The notes under the pieces: model-generated
The model's database searches: none
Seen by the model: the letters and a program-made list of their open reading frames with translations, nothing else
Told to the model about the DNA's origin: nothing
Part shown: in pieces, positions 7,425 through 59,500 of the stretch
Numbering within the stretch: position 1 is the first letter of the stretch
Layout: every line of letters begins with the position of its first letter
Source of the DNA: Lama glama
Taxonomy: Eukaryota
Assembly (NCBI GenBank): GCA_028534125.1
Contig: CM052816.1
Span: forward strand, 27,902,001 to 27,966,000
Reading direction: 5' to 3'
DNA length: 64,000 bases
Made by a program: the position numbers and the translations under genes

Positions 7425-8330
7425 TGTCGGAGCCAGTCGACAATCGATCAGGTCCAGAAACCTGTGCTGCAGGACTGAGAAAAGAAAGACAAGACTAAAA
7501 GATGGGGTTGAGAGGGTCTCACTCTAAGCCTGCAAGACGCTAAGCCAAGAATGGACATTGAGTTTATTTTCAGCAGTTAATTTATACAATNNNNNNNNNN
7601 NNNNNNNNNNNNNNNNNNNNNNNNNNNNNNNNNNNNNNNNNNNNNNNNNNNNNNNNNNNNNNNNNNNNNNNNNNNNNNNNNNNNNNNNNNNNNNNNNNNN
7701 NNNNNNNNNNNNNNNNNNNNNNNNNNNNNNNNNNNNNNNNNNNNNNNNNNNNNNNNNNNNNNNNNNNNNNNNNNNNNNNNNNNNNNNNNNNNNNNNNNNN
7801 NNNNNNNNNNNNNNNNNNNNNNNNNNNNNNNNNNNNNNNNNNNNNNNNNNNNNNNNNNNNNNNNNNNNNNNNNNNNNNNNNNNNNNNNNNNNNNNNNNNN
7901 NNNNNNNNNNNNNNNNNNNNNNNNNNNNNNNNNNNNNNNNNNNNNNNNNNNNNNNNNNNNNNNNNNNNNNNNNNNNNNNNNNNNNNNNNNNNNNNNNNNN
8001 NNNNNNNNNNNNNNNNNNNNNNNNNNNNNNNNNNNNNNNNNNNNNNNNNNNNNNNNNNNNNNNNNNNNNNNNNNNNNNNNNNNNNNNNNNCAAGTAAACT
8101 GAGATAACTAACTTGTATGCTGATTGTATCTCTCTGTTCTAAGGTCATCAGTGACTTAATAGCTCTGGATGTTCCTAGAGCTTTAGAACACCTGGTGCAT
8201 TCTTCTTCAAAGGGGTGGCGGGACAGAGATTGTCTTTGCTAGATCAATCTCAGAGCCTGACGCCAGCACTTTGGGATTTTCCGTCCCGTCCTGTGCTCGG
8301 CAGTCCTCAGGTCATGAGTGGCTCCCCGCA
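7425..8330 (-). mobile_element. Young endogenous retrovirus LTR element (class II/betaretrovirus-like), interrupted by an assembly gap
   Basis: Minus strand starts TGCGGGGAGC (8330) and ends ..CTCCGACA (7425). Perfect 5-bp TSD TGGAT at 7420-7424 and 8331-8335. TATAAA (7581-7586) and AATAAA (7563-7568) on the minus strand; CpGs retained. Confidence 0.85.
7591..8090. other. Assembly gap (500 N)
   Basis: Run of exactly 500 n; the three long X-containing ORFs are artefacts of it. Confidence 1.
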
Positions 8331-14240: not shown

Positions 14241-15322
14241 TTTTTTTTTTTAACATTTTTTATTGAGTTATAGTCATTTTACAATGTTGTGTCAAATTCC
14301 AGTGTAGAGCACAATTTTTCAGTTATACATGAACATACATATATTCATTGTCACTTTCTTTTTTTGCTGTGAGCTACCACAAGATCTTTTATATATTTCC
14401 CTGTGCTGTACAGTATAATCTTGTTCATCTATTCTGCATATGCCTGTCAGTATCTACAAATTTTGAACCCCCAGTCTGTCCCTTCCCACCCCTCTCCCCC
14501 TTGGCAACCACAAGTTTGTATTCTATGTCTATGAGTCTATTTCTGTTTTGTATTTATGTTCATTTTTTTTTAGATGCCACTTACGAGCGATCTCATATGG
14601 TATTTTTCTTTCTCTTTCTGGCTTACTTCACTTAGAATGACGTTCTCCAGGAGCATCCATGTTGCTGCAGATGGTAGTATGTTGTTGGTTTTTATGGCTG
14701 AATAGTATTCCACTGTGTAAATATACCACATCATCTTTATCCAGTCATCTGTTGATGGACATTTAGGCTGTTTCCATGTCTTGGCTATTGTAAATAGTGC
14801 TGCTATGAACATTGGGGTGCGGGTGTCTTTTTGAAGTAGGGTTCCTTCTGGATATATGCCCAGGAGCGGGATTCTTGGGTTATATGGTAAGTCTCTTCCG
14901 AGTCTTTTCAGAAATCTCCATACTGTTTTCCATAGTGGCTGCACCAAACTGCATTCCCACCAGCAGTGCAGGAGGGTTCCCTTTTCTCCACAGCCTCTCC
15001 AGCATTTGTCATTTGTGGACTTTTGAATGACAGCCATTCTGACTGGTGTGAGGTGATACCTCATTGTAGTTTTGATTTGCATTTCTCTGATAATTAGTGA
15101 TACTGAGTATTTTTTAGTGTGCCTATTGATCATTTGTATGTCTTCCTTGGAGAATTTTTTGTTTAGGTCTTCTACCCATTTTTGGATTGGGTTGTCTGTT
15201 TTTTTCTTATTAAGTCGTATGAGCTGCTTATATATTCTGGAGATCAAGCCCTTGTCAGTTTCATCATTTGCAAAAATTTTCTCCCATTCCGTAGGTTGTG
15301 GTTTTCTTTTACTTATGGTTCG
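14241..15322 (-). mobile_element. Young 5'-truncated LINE-1 (ORF2 C-terminus, 3' UTR, polyA)
   Basis: Poly-T at 14241; 15-bp TSD tttcttc(c/a)attttct at 14226-14240 and 15323-15337; open ORF2 frame. Confidence 0.97.
14570..15320 (-). pseudogene. L1 ORF2p C-terminal fragment including the CCHC knuckle
   Basis: [57 protein letters not shown]; uninterrupted for ~250 codons but 5'-truncated. Confidence 0.95.
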
Positions 15323-16539
15323 TTTCTTCAATTTTCTATCATGACTTATTTTACAAAACAAACTCCCTTGATCATCATGTCCTATTATTCCAAGTTACCT
15401 AGTACAGTCTCTTTCTATGACTTGAGCATTTTGCCTAACACAATATCCTTGGTGCGTACCAGCTATAAAAAGGCAAATGACCCAAGCTTATACTGGATCT
15501 TTGAGATATTCTACATTACTACATTCCTACTGAAATATCTGTTAGTTTTCCCCGGCCAGCTTTCTCTTCTACCCCACTTACCCAGGCAAACTCAAGCTTC
15601 AGCCTTATCTGTACACTATGTTGAATCTTTTGGTATCTGGCTCACTTTACTGAAATCTAGTCTGTGTGACCACATTAGGTTCCATGGAGAGGGTCTTCCT
15701 GTTTGCACTAGGATAAAGATCTTTGCCTAGATCTTCTTACCCCCTCACCTCTTCCAAAAGTCATACTTTGCAACAAAGACAGAAAATATGCATGACCTAC
15801 CTCTACACAGTAACTAGATGACAGAGAAAATTATAAACCTCGACTTAGGTTTAAGGGGGAAAATAAATATGTGACCCCAGCAGAATCAGTGCCAATACCC
15901 ACAGAGGTGCCATGAGTCTGTTGGTACGTACACACAAGAATAGGGAGTGGCCAGACCTTAGGAATAGAAGAATCCAGATAACGTCAACAGAGCTGTATTC
16001 CCAGAAGTGGAAAGCCCCATCATAATGGGACTCATGGGCCTGTCTCTGAGAAAACACAGTTCAGAGCCATCACAGTGGACAAATTAAAAGGAAAATGTGT
16101 GACACATTGGGATTCCCTTAGGGGAGACAGCTGATATTAAGGCAGTAGAAGAAGGCAGCTAACACTAAGGACTCTTCTAAAATAGAGAAAACTAACAACA
16201 ACAAAGAGTTCATTATATTATTGAATATATTCAGTATATTATTGAAATCCATGTAAAAGTCTTGCTCCTCCCAATGAGAAAAAAAATCTCCTTCTAAAAG
16301 ATAGTACAGGAAAAATGCATTCAGATGTTAACAAGAGAAATGAAATTACAACACAATTATTTATACAAAAAAATGTAGCAAGATTCAGGGAAAACACAAT
16401 CTCACAGATGACAAGTAAAATTCCACTAGTTTTACTAGTCAGCTTTTACCCCAGAGTTTATTGCTGAATTTTAAATGGTATAGAGCAATAGATAATCAAG
16501 AAGTATTCTGCTGAGAAATTGAAAATGTAATTAGAGATG

Positions 16540-48189: not shown

Positions 48190-48790
48190 TGACCTATCAA
48201 AACACAACCTGAATCTAATCATAAGGAAACAACAAATCAAGCTAACTTGAGGGATAGTCTACAGAATAACTAGACTGTTGTATCTAAGAATGTCGGGCTT
48301 TCATACACACACACCTACCTTCTCCCCTGCCAAAGAGAAGTCTGAGCAACTGTTCCAGATTCCAGAAGACCAAGAGATACTACACCTGAAGGTGATACAG
48401 GATTCCAAGTGCATCCTCCTGGACCATGAAGGAAAAAAAAAGAAACAGGGTTCATTGTGCATTTTGCAAAATTTCAGTATGAACTATGGATTAGAAGATA
48501 ATAGCATGTTTTAAAGTTCATGAATATGATAATGATACCCTTAATTATGTAAGAAAATATTCTCATCCTCAGGAAATAAATACATATTACGTATAAATAT
48601 CCTTGATCTCTATTCTCCAACGTTTTCCAGGTGTGTATATATGTGTGTATGTGTATTTTATATATATATATAAAACCATATACCTGTATAGAGATATGTA
48701 TTTTTATGTGTGTGTATATATATACAGAGAAGGTAAATGTTCATAATTGGTGGATCCGGCTGCTATACCTGTGAAACTTCACTCATCAAT
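48190..48790 (+). mobile_element. Ancient L1MC/ME 3' UTR with embedded (TA/TG)n
   Basis: cacaacctgaatctaatcataaggaaac..ttgagggatagtctacagaataact; gaactgttccagattccagaagaccaagaga. Confidence 0.65.
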
Positions 48791-48960: not shown

Positions 48961-49269
48961 CTGTTGGTCTCTACACTGCAAGTTTTTAAGTATGATGCTG
49001 TCTTCCTGCCCTGGTCAGTGTTTGATGCTCTGTCTTCCAAACTACTGTAGCACTTTCCACAGACATCTTCTATTGTATTTATCATGTTATACTGTCATTA
49101 TTTTTTAAAGGATGTTCACCTTAATCTCACTTCCCACTGCTTAACACAAAATGTGACCCACAATAGGCATCTAAAAATAAGCAAATCAAGGAAGCAAGTG
49201 TGTGCACACCACTACAGGAAGGACAAGTCAGTGCAGAGTGGCTGGTTGATACAGCATCATCTACAGTTG

Positions 49270-49532
49270 CTCTGTAAATATGACATCTGTGCACATCCTG
49301 AAATGTCACTGGACCAAACTGAGATGTGCTATAAGTATACATGCGCATTAGAATTTATAAGAAAAATTATTATGAAAACATGTAGACTATCTCATTACTA
49401 TTCACACTGATTTACTCCTAAAATAATATATTTTAACCAATACATCCAAAATATTATGAAAATTAATTTTCTGTATATTCTTACTTTTTTCCGATGTGAT
49501 GACTCACATTCCATTTCTTTTGGTAGTGCTGG
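49270..49532 (+). mobile_element. hAT-Charlie MITE (MER33-like)
   Basis: gaaatgtcactggaccaaactgagatgtgctataagtat..atgtagactatctcatta..catttcttttggtagtgctg. Confidence 0.7.
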
Positions 49533-49627
49533 TCTACCCACTGCTGTGCCAATCCTGATTACCCTTCTGTGAATATTCATCTCTGTTACTGTAAAGTAGT
49601 TGACCATGTAGATTTTCACTTCATGCA

Positions 49628-51050
49628 GACAGATACTAGCTGCCTCCAACTCTTCCATTAGATAAGTAGATAGGTAGGTAGAAAGAAAGATATGTAGGTA
49701 GCTAAGTAGATAGACAAGTAAAGAGATAGCAGGGAAGTAGATAAAAAGAAAGACGGACACACAAAGACACTAGCCATCTCCTCCTTCTTCATTAAGCAGG
49801 TAAGAAGGTAGGTATATAGATACAGAGACACTAGCTGCCTCCTCATTCTCTATTACTTTGGTAGGCAGACAAGTACATACGTAGGTAGGTATATAGATAG
49901 GAAGAAAGTATGACAGAGACACTAGTTGTGGCCACCTCCTCCATTAGCTAGGTAGGTAGATAGATGGGTACAAAGATAGATGAAAAAAGAGACACTAGCC
50001 GGTGCTCTTCCCACATTAGGTAGGTAGGTAGGTAGGAAAATAGAAAGTCAGAGACAGTAGCCGATACATTAGGTAATTAAAAGATGGGTAGGCAGAGAGA
50101 AAGGATGACAGAGACGCTAGCTGCCTCCTTCACTATTAGGTAGGTAGGTAGATAAGGTAGTTAGGAAGATACATAAATAGATAGAAAGGCAAACAGACAC
50201 TTTCTGCATCCTCCACCTGTAATTGTAATTGATAGGTAGATAGGAAGACAAAGAATGACACAGCCATTAGCCGCCTCTCCTACTACATTAGGTACTTAGC
50301 TAAGTAGGTAGGTAAATACACAGAGACACTAGCTGCCTCCTCATCCCCCAAAACGTGGATAGACAGTGAGACAGGTAGATAGGAAGGTAGGCAGATACAA
50401 AGACAATGATAGAGCCGCTAGCCACCGCCTCCTCTTCCATGAGGGAGGTAGACAGGCAGATAGAATGATAGAGACGCTAGCCGACTCCTCCTCCATTAGG
50501 GAGGGAGATAGGTAGGAAGGTAGAAAGGTATGAGGGAGATAGAAAGATAGACTCATAGAGATGCTATACGCTTCCTCCTCCTCCATTGGGGAGGGAGGGA
50601 GGGGGATAGGAAGATAGAATCATAGAGATGCTAGCTGCCTGCTCTTCCTCCATTATGTAGGTAGGTAGGTAGAGAGGTACGGAGGTGGGTAGGAAAGTAG
50701 GTAGGTAGGTAGATAGATATGTTGTTACATAGATATATAGGCAGGTACTTACGTAGGTAGAAAGGTAGATATATAGAAAGAATGTCAGAAAAGATAGTTG
50801 CCTCCTCCTTCTACATTATGTAAGTAGATAGATAGGTATGTAGGTACATAGATATGTCAATAGCAAGAGAGACAGACAGAGACACTACCTACGTCTTTCT
50901 CCTCCATTAGGCAAGTAGGTAGTTTAGGTAGGTAGGTAGATATATAGGTAGATTGGTAGAACGACCGAGACAGAAACACTAGCCTCTCTCCACTAGAGGG
51001 AGAGAGGCAGAGACAAAGCTATAGAGAAAAGTACTAGCCTGTTCCTCATA
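49628..51050. repeat. Composite minisatellite: ~17-18 copies of core AGAGACACTAGCTGCCTCCTCCTCCATTAG separated by variable (GGTA/GATA/GACA)n spacers
   Basis: Cores start near 49628, 49762, 49824, 49915, 49988, 50050, 50110, 50193, 50258, 50322, 50411, 50470, 50557, 50624, 50787, 50878, 50972 and 51025. Confidence 0.95.
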
Positions 51051-51397
51051 CCGTGTCACCCTTTTCTTCTTCTTTGCTCATGAAGGAAACCTGGTGTCAT
51101 ATTCAATGTCAACTTCTCTTCTTTCTAACGAAAAATAGAAAAAAATATTGGTACATGTATGAATTACACTCTACATTTACTCTCCTTTCATATATTTTAA
51201 AGATCAAAATCAGCTTAATCGAGCCAAGCCCATAGCAACACTTGATTAATAGAACACCTTCAAATCACGTTAGCATAAAAAATGGCACACTATGTATTTT
51301 GCTTGGTGTTTCAAGAAAGATATGTCAATAAAAATTTTATTTCACAGGTATGGAAATATAAATCTCTTTCTTTTGCTGTTATAATTTATTTGGAATA

Positions 51398-52961
51398 TCA
51401 GAAATTCTCCAAGAAAAGTTTTGTACCCTTTGATGAAGTTATAGATGAGCTGAGAACAATTTTTGTGGGAGAATACTATCAAACTATATATATATATATA
51501 TACACACATATATATACACACACACATATATCAATAAATATGGAAAATACGGGTTTTCCCCTATTCAATTTAAAATACCAAAATCCCATATATATTGAAA
51601 GTGTGAAGAAGAAAACAAATTTCAAATTACATCTGGTACAACAAATTTTTCTTTAAAAAATATTTAAGATTTTCAGTGGGAATAATGTGTTCCCAGCACA
51701 TTGCTACTCATAAACCAGCTATTTATACTTAGTTTATTTAACTTCATTCTGTTACACTGAGATACTATAATCTGGGGAAACCTGAGTATAATGAAGATTC
51801 TGTTTCAAAGAAAAATAAGATTACTTTTTCTCTTAAAAGTCTTTTATATGTGTCAATAGGTTTGTATATATTTGGTGTAATCGTTATACTCTAATGGACC
51901 TCCAGAAGCAGTTGTCTGTATTTGAAGTCATGTGATTCTAATTATTAAACCTCAAACCCACTTATATGTTTAATCCTTATTTTCCTTTAAAAAAAGTCAA
52001 TATAAATTTAGTTAGATAACCTAAAATAATCTGCCAATTTGGATATTACATTTATCCTGCTCTAATTTTAAATAATGAGGACAGTTTTGTTGTTCCCAGA
52101 TGAGATTACAGCACAGTCAGGGGAAAAAATCGTGTTATTCCTGATATACTAAAAATCAGGTGAAAGTTTCTCTAAAGTTTTTTCCTTTATTTAGAAACCA
52201 GGCTGAGGGATTTTGTTTTGAATGACAACATATCTAAAGGAAAATTACTAATCAGATCTTGGAGACAAAGTAGAAAAGATAAGGTTGGTGTCATCTTTTT
52301 TTAAAGGCCATTGAACATTAGAATCCACATCAGTCTGGCTCTAGACTGGGAAGATACACCAAATTAGATCAAATTGGAGCTTAAAATTGTGATTCAATCT
52401 GTTCATGTAGATAAAACCTCAAAGTTCCATCATGTCAAATATACCATCTTAACCACTTTGTTTCCTTATCATCTTTCCTTTGCCATCTTATTACAGACAG
52501 AGAAACAACACTGATTTCCCTTGGAGAGTTTAAATCACATCTGGTATCTTTTAGAAGGCTTTCCTGACAGGAATAGCAATCATAATATGAAATCATTCAC
52601 TTTTAATAATATCTTTAAATATCACATGATTTACCTGCACACAAGTTTAGGTCCTAGAAGTAATATGTCAAAGTGGATTTGATGCTGATAGAGCTGAATT
52701 CCTTGCCGAGACCTAAAGAGAAACAGAGTGACCTCAGACACACTCCCAACTTTATTTACAGGACATGGACAGGCATCTGACTGCGCCTGGGAAAACATAG
52801 GCAGTATAGTACTTTGTGAATTTTTCCACAAGGGACTATTTAAGCAACATGGGCTTATTAGAGAAAATTCCCCTGGGGAAGTTGAGAAAGACTGGACACA
52901 GTGATGCACAACTCACTCACTCTGTACACCTCTCCCCATTTCTTCTGTAAAATATCTCCAT
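51398..52961 (-). other. Candidate three-exon small ORF (56 aa), unverified
   Basis: Exons 52961-52921, 52712-52635 and 51449-51398; GT-AG introns, consistent phases, Kozak gtcATGG, AATAAA after the stop; no homolog recognised. Confidence 0.25.
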
Positions 52962-53320
52962 GACAGCACACAACAGAGCCCTTTAATTTTGTTTTGTGAT
53001 TATGGTAACTGTTGCAAGTCTATTAGGAAGGTAGCAGAATCCAGTCTCTCTGTTCACAGAACCTGAGACTCTTCACCAAATGCTCCTCAGTGCTCTTGAC
53101 ACTGGAGGGTAATGTACATCTGAAACTTGGCCAGCTGCAACAGGGCAATGGGAAATTTTTTTAGTGCCCATTTCACTTGGCTTCGGTTGGGGAGGAAGTG
53201 CCCAGTACACTCCTTCACTTCAAAAGACAGCAAATTCACAACATTCACCATGGGGCTGATAACTCAGAGGCATCATTTCCTTTTGAAAGTGGAGTTTTCC
53301 CACTTTGTTTGTGACTAATT
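52860..53320. promoter_or_regulatory. Putative immune-type enhancer/promoter motif cluster
   Basis: PU.1 GAGGAAGTG (53192-53200), kB-like GGAGTTTTCC (53291-53300) and GAAAATTCCC (52863-52872), AP-1-like TGACTAA (53312-53318), TGATAA (53257-53262); unique sequence. Confidence 0.35.
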
Positions 53321-53409
53321 TACTGCTAATAGCACACTTTGTTCTTCACTTTTCTAAAAAGTTATAAAAAGTAAGTACCTTTTGCTTACATAAATATTGT
53401 ATTTCTACA

Positions 53410-53600
53410 GTGAAGGAAAAAGAGTGGTCAAATAAGCTTAAGTTTTAGCCCTGGCTATTTGGCATGTTTCCTAATCTTTCTGTACCTCTGATTACTGTGT
53501 AAAATATCAGTAAAAACTGTGATTACCTCATAGATTTGTTTTGGAATGTGATATAGCATATGTTATTTAGAAAAGTATTTGCTAAGAACTAAACATTAAA
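53410..53600 (+). mobile_element. MIR SINE (decayed)
   Basis: cctaatctttctgtacctctg..tgtaaaat..tacctcatagatttgttttgga. Confidence 0.6.
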
Positions 53601-54965
53601 AGAAAACATTACTAGGTCTGCAGTAGACATGCTGAATATTAATTTGCATGGTCCAATGTTACAGTTTACATAGGGGAACTATGCACAGCATTTCTGAGAC
53701 CTTTGGCACTTAACATTTTGTTAATTGGTTTTATTGTCTAACTGAATGGTCACCATTGTGTTCCACCACCACAAAATGTTATACGGGAAACAATTATGCT
53801 CATTTCTGATCACGAAGGCACCTCTATCCATTCATGTGATTACCAGTTGTGAACACTAACTGGAGAGGCACAGATTCTTCGTGCGATACCTGTTTCTTAG
53901 ATCAACAAAGCTGGTTATGTTTACAAGTCTATCTTAGAACATACAAGATAGTGAAAAATGGGACCAGCTAGTGGTGAACTGTGGACACTACTGACTGATC
54001 TCACCACAGAAGAGAGAGGTGTGGCAGAAATTATTAGTTCTACTTTTCTGCAGGAATACCAAACTTAAAACCTGAAAAGTTCAAAAACAGAGTGAAGGTA
54101 AAATTTGGGGGAAGAATATAGTCAGTGGAGAGACCTATCTGAACCCATGCGGTAGGGAACATAGAAATTTCATAAATGACTTCTCTGTCCAGGAATCTGC
54201 TGAGGACATTTCCTTATTGCATCACATACATTAAGAATAAGAATATCTAGCTGTTATTACTCAGAGGAGCAATTCCTTATTCTGTATTTTGGATGTTAGT
54301 AGAACTAAAGTTATAAAGTACTCTGTCCTCAGCTCATATGATACCATGGACAGACTTTAATTTTGTACCCTACCACTCATTCACACACTGAAATTAATCA
54401 CATTACCGAGGATAAATCATATGAGGATAAATAAAGTTTTATTTATTTCTAATGAAAATGTATTACCTATCCCACACAAAGATTCCCTTCTGATAGTAAC
54501 TCACTAACTGAACTCTCAGTACAATTCCCTAACTTTATAATTGGCTTTGAGTTAGTAAAATACTTTCACCACACTTAAAACTTACTCTAGTTTTCTTTTT
54601 AATGCCAGTCTCAACTTTAATATAAAGCTTTCCTTATATCTACTCCTTACGATTGGGTTTTTCTTGATTTGGCATGATACGGAAGAGGTTTGTGAGGATA
54701 AAGGGGGAAAATGAAAGGTAAGTCTATATTACCAGAATTAGTTACAGTCTGCCCTTGTTCTTGATCTGTGGGATTCAAGGAGATGCCATGACAGACTCAA
54801 TAATGGATAGATCACTCCAGAGCAGTTCAGTCTGGAAATGGTTTTCCTTTACTTGGTTAGTCACAATTTAGAGCTGCTTTTCAGTTGGTTGTATTACCCT
54901 ATACTCTGCTGCTGCGCATTGCTGTTTGCAGCCCTTACTATGGCCGTGCCCTTCAAAAAGCCTCA

Positions 54966-58229: not shown

Positions 58230-58820
58230 CTAAACACACGTGGGCAGGGCCAGGTAGCAGTCTCCCAGCTCAGCTCCTGTGTTCCAAAAACTGGGAGGGA
58301 GTCAAGGGGACTGAAATGAAGCCCCTCGATTTACCACTGGGAATGAGTTTTTTGTTTTTTCTTCCTAAAAGGGAAATTTAAAAATCTACAACAAATCATG
58401 CCAAATGCATTGAAATGATTAAAACAACAATAAGAACAAAAACAAAAACCAGCCTCTCCCTCCTTGCTTAAGCTTCAGACGTGGCTAAAAACGCTGAGTA
58501 CGGAAGTGACCTGGCCTGTGGCTCAGCCCAGTGCAGGTCCCAGAGCTGGGGGAGAACTGCCGTCAGCTGACAGTGTGGGACAGACCCAGCCACCAGCCTT
58601 CGTCTGGGAAAACTGGGCGGGGAGGGAACTAGGGAGAGGGAGACACCCCGAAAGAAAAAGCACATTTCCAAGGGAAAATTCTAAAAATAACAGATACTTT
58701 ATTGGTGGGTATCAGAGGTCTTAGTGCCAGGGAGGCTGCAGGTGGGGGCACCACGTGGCTGTCACCAGCTGCGCTGCTCCAGGTAAGGGGACAGGAGCAG
58801 TCCCAGGGCAGGAAGTTCAG
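58230..58820. promoter_or_regulatory. Promoter-like GC-rich patch with a candidate first-exon donor
   Basis: ETS CGGAAGTG (58501-58508), GC box GGGCGGGG (58615-58622), E-boxes CACGTG (58237 and 58752), CAG|gtaagg at 58782/58783; local CpG retention in unique sequence. Confidence 0.5.
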
Positions 58821-59500
58821 GTGCCAAAATGTGTTTCACTCTTTACATGTAATTGAAAGATGAGAGCATTGAATTTTTTTTAATTTGTCAATTTAGCAAG
58901 TGTCTCTTTTACCAAACTGACAAAATGTGTAGGTAAATACTTTCCCAAGACTATTGCAAATAATGAGACCAGACGCATATTTTACGGGTGAAATATCAGC
59001 AACAGAAAAGATAACAAGAACTGGTCCTGTTTTATCACATTTAAGAAGAGAAGGAATAAGCCAGTTTTCTTTGAACATCATTCCTAATTCCAAGGTTACT
59101 TCTCACTCGACATAATTAGAAAAGTGCTATGAATGATGATATCCCTAAGCGCCAATTATGTTCTGCAAATTAAAGTTAGGTCAGATGTTATATATACTGG
59201 ACGTGAACAGTCTTAACAAATTTGCCCAGAAATATTGAAAATGAAGACAAATTTCATTAACTGTAAAAACATCTGTTTCTATAAAGAGAGACTATTCTTT
59301 TAGAAATAAATATGTCCCAAAGAGATAGAATGCCATTAGAGGTAGAACTCTGGATTTAATTGATAACTAATGCAATATACTAAAACACATAGATGTGAGC
59401 AGTGTTTCAGAGCACACTTTAATCTGAAGTACGGGTTCTTTGAAGTTACTTCTTGGTAAATTACTTTAATGTTGTTCGTTTTTCTCCCTCCTTGAGACAG

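Follow-up and report, generated by a model that had tools for sequence, protein, structure and literature searches.

The repeat array at the centre of this analysis lies in a 64-kb stretch of llama DNA (64,000 nt, hereafter the window) and is best explained, with a probability of about 0.6, as an old, neutrally decaying compound minisatellite that belongs to a dispersed camelid repeat family and carries no selected function. An ancestral unit of about 60 bp, comprising a 33-bp core and a short TAGG/TAGA tract, would have been amplified head to tail. Point mutations would then have struck core and spacer alike, and slippage would have altered only the length of the spacer and of the CCT tract inside the core; because slippage was presumably confined to these tracts, the core looks conserved. 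Whole units would occasionally have been gained, lost, exchanged or converted through unequal exchange, a turnover suggested by the likeness of neighbouring units, by the loss of unit 11 in one allele and by an apparent second array that unit 12 resembles more closely than it does its neighbours. The ancestral unit probably also lies within VpaSat10 and VpaSat02, two alpaca satellites with monomers several kb long, and in one RNA run a minus-strand transcript crosses the locus and loses the whole array in a single intron, whose donor was formed in the decayed edge unit. Against this reading, the stable place of the array and an intron that matches it almost end to end are unlike pure chance. 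Nothing shows that the array has a function of its own.

Table 1 Features of the array and of the transcript that crosses it (positions in the window).
Feature	Coordinates	Strand	Remarks
Compound minisatellite, 18 units	49629..51051	.	~33-bp core plus purine-rich tetranucleotide spacer
Core layout			12-nt head, variable CCT tract, 7-nt tail
Units 11-14, more homogeneous block	50411..50656	.	21% apart vs 35% for all pairs
Intron, GT-AG, 1,485 nt, holding the whole array	49567..51051	-	Joint 49566/51052, ends CT..AC, depth 17, run X17
Internal exon, 73 nt, directly upstream of the array	51052..51124	-	Bounded by both joints
Downstream exon, ~82 nt	49485..49566	-	Start given by joint, end predicted from donor at 49484
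Intron, GT-AG, 1,510 nt	51125..52634	-	Joint 51124/52635, depth 6, run X17
Upstream exon, at least 471 nt in the spliced contig	52635..53105	-	Run X17 contig

Anatomy and decay of the repeat unit

Iterative local alignment recovered 18 core copies, 17 clear and the last degenerate. The units lie head to tail in one orientation with start-to-start periods of 51-164 bp (15 of 17 below 100 bp), and core matches scoring at least 24 occur 3-5 times per 400 nt in the array, while none of 306 background windows of 400 nt, which are AT-rich and not matched for complexity, holds two or more. The array of about 17-18 units, mostly of about 55-165 bp, that a preliminary description had proposed is therefore real and far beyond chance. 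Cores account for 559 of the 1,423 array bases (39%). The spacers between them measure 26-131 nt, are 73% purine on the plus strand and are dominated by the tetramers GTAG, GGTA, TAGG and TAGA. Tandem Repeats Finder picked up short spacer repeats and left the array as a whole unreported.

The same description had called the ~30-bp core conserved, a word that proves too strong: with the degenerate unit 18 left out, the 17 remaining cores share a mean pairwise identity of 68% (52-83%) against 46% for shuffled sequence, and the cores, which align to a 33-nt consensus, differ in how long their CCT tract is. The spacers hold a 4-nt phase with 6 phase jumps in 678 nt and stand 16% from an ideal (RTAG)n repeat, compared with 40% when shuffled. 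Since they keep this phase yet vary in length, the description of an old minisatellite whose embedded microsatellites changed independently holds. A unit resembles its neighbours more than it does a randomly drawn partner (P=0.002), with a homogeneous block in the middle of the array (Table 1); over all units, the rank correlation between unit distance and divergence is not significant (P=0.14).

The array is set in AT-rich, L1-laden mammalian DNA, in a window that, by comparison with human coordinates, would lie roughly in the block matching human 5q23. At its borders no insertion-site duplication stands out, the best border repeat being 7 nt, a length reached by 26 of 60 control pairs; such a duplication may have decayed. 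We set aside a CRISPR-like reading, because the spacers are simple repeats rather than unique sequences, and an origin as a retroelement leader, because the flanks carry no LTR by eye and are at single-copy depth. A scan of the 64-kb window against Rfam returned no match. Elsewhere in the window, its one 500-N assembly gap (7591-8090) sits between LTR-like sequence recognized by eye, and a 274-codon open stretch on the minus strand (14570-15394) is the 3' end of L1 ORF2, an ordinary younger L1 fragment.

We next compared how far the two parts of the unit have decayed. Whole cores differ from their own consensus at 98 of 535 positions (18.3%), and 16 spacers, counted without the last 10 nt before each core, depart from ideal (RTAG)n at 96 (19.0%) of the 505 positions that are not degenerate. 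The two loads are equal (P=0.81), in a weak comparison that uses two references, own consensus and ideal tetramer, and so is no strict neutrality test. Head plus tail columns alone give 49 of 323 (15.2%; P=0.16 against the spacers). C/G columns have changed more than A/T columns (33/153 vs 16/170, P=0.003), as AT-biased decay would give. Among head and tail columns there is mild overdispersion (P=0.04), with 4 invariant columns against 1.2 expected, and all 4 are A or T. The core thus looks neutrally decayed, and the earlier view that it persisted while the spacers changed finds no echo in these loads. The simplest reading is one point-mutation clock over the whole unit, with slippage in the simple tracts only.

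These data bear on the proposal that the core is a reiterated protein-binding site of zinc-finger, PRDM9-like or homeobox TAAT type, or that the array acts as a small heterochromatin seed bound like related satellites, which we consider distinctly improbable. The TAAT-type motif CTAATGG in the core tail occurs 5 times against 0.14 in shuffles, and this count, the mild overdispersion of columns and reports that short satellite-like arrays near genes affect expression in other taxa would all suit a bound site. However, such motif counts follow trivially from tandem copying, core and spacer carry the same load, the invariant columns are all A or T, the human-type PRDM9 pattern has no match in the array, and cores are lost in relatives.

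Neither structure nor coding potential adds a signal. Folding of the minus strand as RNA, in two overlapping parts, gave z scores of -0.56 and +1.02, and folding of the plus strand as DNA gave +2.26 (20 shuffles each). The complementarity between core and spacer seen earlier is thus compositional only, with no folding excess over shuffles, and the suggestion of non-B DNA likewise meets no excess folding; the G-quadruplex pattern occurs twice on the plus strand, within GGGA-rich spacers. Of the 18 units, 13 have an ATG at the start of the core, spread over all three frames and giving 1-86 aa, and the (CCTA)n and (TCTA)n tetramers are free of stop codons. The MEEE-type open reading frames pointed out before are therefore a by-product of stop-free tetramers, and the longest array ORF had no protein relative at E<=0.01 among 34 candidates of near length.

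The locus in relatives and a probable second array

To follow the array in related genomes, we used sequencing runs. DNA runs of four organisms (16 of the 24 listed runs) contain 82-99% of the sampled words of 49000-53500, and contigs of 4 of the 24 were compared over 49000-54900: X11 and X14, which are DNA, X17, which is RNA, and X19, whose RNA status is a guess. Uncovered parts in X17 and X19 were not counted as absence. X11 and X14 are more than 99% alike to the window and colinear across the array, whose flanks both runs show at single-copy depth. For X17 and X19 the likeness is about 96%, which in the case of X19 would correspond to the distance of an Old World camel. In X19 both array ends join the same flanks as in the window, so the array is older than that split.

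At this stable orthologous locus, the array itself carries length differences. X11 lacks 16 nt at 50062, which removes the tail of core 6; X14 has 19 nt added at 50321; and a 3-nt indel at 50530 is found in both. A 65-nt skip in X14 (50388/50454) removes unit 11 at depth 4.2, beside an intact form at depth 5.9; being a single contig under depth 5, it may be an error. A relative at ~96% likeness has changes at two core positions, 50892 and 50992. Such core changes and losses again speak against persistence of the core. In X19, array-touching contigs differ at 35 of 721 positions and flanks at 54 of 1,749 (P=0.043), a comparison based on 7 of the 8 listed records (of 26), record 21 being dropped as probably another locus. 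The 9 listed in-array substitutions comprise 7 spacer changes and 2 core changes (P of about 0.25, estimated by hand); with 101 further differences beyond those listed, core and spacer rates are not separable in the relatives.

Additionally, both DNA runs hold contigs with repeated unit-12-like pieces, of 542 nt at depth 9.1 in X14 (record 10) and of 402 nt at depth 11.6 in X11 (record 4). Both are at about single-copy depth and occur alongside separate records that cover the studied locus, and the spacings in the X14 contig are 138 and 96 nt as against 59 and 87 at the studied locus. One 89-nt piece has 5 differences and 3 gaps relative to unit 12 and is closer to it than unit 12's own neighbours. 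A further contig, common to X17 and X19, agrees with the array from position 50441 but carries another flank, one absent from the 64-kb window. These findings point to at least one more array besides the studied locus, nearer to unit 12. No high-copy contig matched cores 8-10 at >=85%, the bin 50182-50378 being at single-copy depth. Two scans of metagenomes gave 0 and 3 loci, and viral contigs gave at least 120; we regard these matches as chance, since none among the 123 loci listed holds more than one core-like piece. All these collections contain little mammalian DNA.

Two known systems help to place the array. In the excerpted text of PMC7719264, euchromatic arrays of human alpha repeats are, as here, short satellite-like arrays in L1-rich euchromatin that are stably inherited, and such dispersed repeats show, apparently as here too, some copy-number variation and divergence that follows species. 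Unlike that type, the studied array has no border duplication, and its units are heavily decayed and irregular. DXZ4 resembles it in that internal microsatellites account for most of the length variation between monomers and the non-simple part stays constant in length (PMC3081327, in part); its monomers, however, are 3 kb long, 99% alike and less than 5% microsatellite, whereas the studied units measure 50-165 bp, are 68% alike in the core and are about 60% microsatellite. In open-licence PMC and bioRxiv literature we found nothing on this locus, and four 17-18-nt unit motifs were unmatched there.

Likeness to alpaca satellites

The closest catalogued sequences are three alpaca satellites, VpaSat02, VpaSat03 and VpaSat10, from a catalogue of 2026 (PMC13751797). 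In the parts of the catalogue used here, their monomers measure 3.1-5.0 kb (VpaSat10-3126, VpaSat02-5021, VpaSat03-3224), FISH places them below the centromere on 8-10 chromosome pairs, and they amplify only in South American camelids and are without known relatives; its main text on alpaca satellites mentions no microsatellites, sub-repeats or introns. Our comparison covers the first 400 nt of each monomer and is a hand alignment of low-complexity DNA. Over that span, VpaSat10 and VpaSat02 are built like the array, with a GGA/CCT-rich core alternating with a GATA/GACA-type tetramer tract in the same polarity, and VpaSat03-3224 shows a weaker likeness. Specifically, a VpaSat10 piece matches unit 4, and a VpaSat02 piece unit 14, each at 25 of 33 positions by hand. 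Search terms derived from the core matched only these three among the 14 satellite rows of the catalogue table, the terms having been picked after the table was seen, and terms derived earlier from the window matched none of the same 14 rows. A 16-nt motif of VpaSat10 has two sites in the window, both inside the array (chance 0.11; one of 100 shuffles reached two).

The preliminary description had considered a match to a catalogued satellite. What we find is a resemblance, by hand alignment, between the unit and pieces of these satellites, and homology of the unit with them is probable on this basis. The array is nevertheless not a member of VpaSat02, VpaSat03 or VpaSat10 as defined, from which it differs in monomer size and species range. 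The satellites have GC-rich parts and multi-kb monomers, whereas at the studied locus one array of 1.4 kb stands between single-copy flanks; and they are restricted to South American camelids, as far as the catalogue excerpts go, whereas both array ends are present in the ~96%-alike X19.

A neutral array born locally, with its likeness to VpaSat10 and VpaSat02 due to convergence of GGA-triplet and GATA-type simple sequence, is unlikely. Array and satellites are both of low complexity, and single-unit hand scores of 24-28 fall within the window's background maximum of 30; the lack of a target-site duplication and of a high-copy contig for cores 8-10 at >=85% would also fit local birth. Yet VpaSat10 holds three pieces scoring at least 24 by hand, on one strand and in the same polarity, within the 400 nt compared, where none of the 306 background windows holds two, and the non-simple core head aligns too. 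The second array-like contig, moreover, places the unit at more than one locus.

Taking the dispersed, neutrally decaying minisatellite one step further, we tentatively offer a fuller account that we hold to be possible though doubtful: the array would be an old euchromatic relic of the building block that was later amplified into VpaSat10, VpaSat02 and VpaSat03, would predate the camelid split, would have traded units with one or more further arrays, and would have supplied, from its edge unit, the donor that made it an intron of a reproductive-tract non-coding RNA. If so, the locus would be a datable 'library' copy that shows the origin of a lineage-specific heterochromatin family. A true family link would join three separately catalogued alpaca satellites through a shared sub-unit, one that would also be present in euchromatic arrays that are single-copy and predate the apparent range of the satellites, and the 'library' idea discussed in the catalogue (PMC13751797) would thereby become testable. 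Neither the satellite link nor the array-intron implies function, and as a decaying compound minisatellite the array is ordinary.

Two observations concern the satellites themselves, again from the catalogue in part (PMC13751797). An origin from rDNA spacers was set aside, because FISH places the satellites below centromeres and the NORs are tied to a different satellite. The first 400 nt of VpaSat01-3503 resemble, on inspection by eye, the 3' end of an L1; this would account for VpaSat01 being the only one to amplify consistently outside camelids.

A minus-strand transcript that splices out the array

The RNA run X17 shows two splice joints on the minus strand, one of which removes the whole array (Table 1). 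This evidence comes from one RNA run of one study, and the strand is inferred from the intron ends. The joints, at depths of 17 and 6, compare with about 3 for unspliced contigs, and both are absent from the DNA runs X11 and X14. The array fills 96% of its intron (1,423 of 1,485 nt), whose donor lies inside the degenerate unit 18 and is weak (6.0) and whose acceptor is very weak (1.9), as scored with approximate matrices; the locus is a tidy example of an intron made up almost entirely of one tandem array, its donor lying inside the edge unit. X19 contigs, if RNA, are unspliced across both donors. The array had been placed beyond the poly(A) signals of a candidate small gene. This is not simply so: the poly(A)-like hexamers (51336-51341 and 51385-51390) sit inside the 1,510-nt intron, and the spliced form of X17 skips them and removes the array. 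An RNA signal from the locus is thus present, while the array itself is spliced out.

The transcript is apparently low-level and non-coding. The exon frames hold stops in most cases, and the upstream-exon ORF had no candidate relative among proteins of near length. Two matches of a 37-aa frame in the downstream exon to bacterial-type repeat proteins were rejected, since the scores were built up from 13 and from 5 weak stretches and are artefacts.

Could the array serve its own removal? It might have been co-opted as an intronic splicing element whose CUAC/CUAU tracts and GGAGG motifs recruit hnRNP-type proteins, and would then help to define a weak-sited intron and tune the host RNA; we think neither the co-option nor this role likely. 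The near-complete filling of the intron, its weak donor and acceptor and the unspliced X19 contigs across the donor would fit, as would the motif content of the transcribed strand, where GGAGG occurs 18 times against 0.9 in shuffles and TCT[TC] 44 times against a window average of 18 per equal length. The TCT[TC] count, however, is not above dinucleotide shuffles (39), the ACUAAY motif is absent from the transcribed strand of the array, and branch-point-like pentamers are not enriched (15 vs 17.7 expected). Relatives lose cores, and the host transcript shows no coding frame, protein relatives or function signal. Like the repeat domains of XIST (repeat E), MIAT and NORAD, the array has, on its transcribed strand, a reiterated motif separated by pyrimidine-rich linkers. 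In those long non-coding RNAs the mature transcript retains the repeats, whereas the studied array is spliced out in X17.

On the opposite strand, the units could be read as an array of recursive (zero-length exon) splice sites in a long intron, a far-fetched proposition. In 5 of 18 units an AG-ended pyrimidine tract is directly followed by a good donor on the plus strand, scored with approximate matrices, but TAGG repeats generate such motifs by themselves, and each core contains an upstream AG, which interrupts the AG-free zone normally expected. No GT..AG plus-strand joint is among those listed, the splice-like joints being on the minus strand only; contigs drop rare forms, so rare plus-strand joints could be missed.

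Several further observations concern the surroundings of this transcript. In X17, the contig leaving the internal exon (51052-51124) has depth 17 as against 6 for that entering from 52635, so other upstream partners outside 49000-54900 are likely. A predicted 100-nt exon on the minus strand (48319-48418; acceptor 8.4, donor 10.2) is a candidate next exon and lies inside an apparent old L1 3' relic, recognized by eye. Sequence at 49200-49450 presumably represents a MER3/MER33-type DNA-transposon relic and is overlapped by a 119-aa ORF at 49051-49410. X17 lacks 39 nt at 49177-49215 and carries 66 extra letters at 51933-51934 (depth 3.3). In X19, one 912-nt contig of depth 17 covers 52781-53693, a possible transcript start region, and the minus strand has, around 53650-53730, what we take to be two promoter-type motifs, one octamer-like and one CCAAT-like. 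Finally, a GC-richer unique stretch at 58434-58863, which presumably contains an ETS-like motif (58501-58508) and has a strong plus-strand donor at 58783, could represent a first exon or a promoter, perhaps a bidirectional one.
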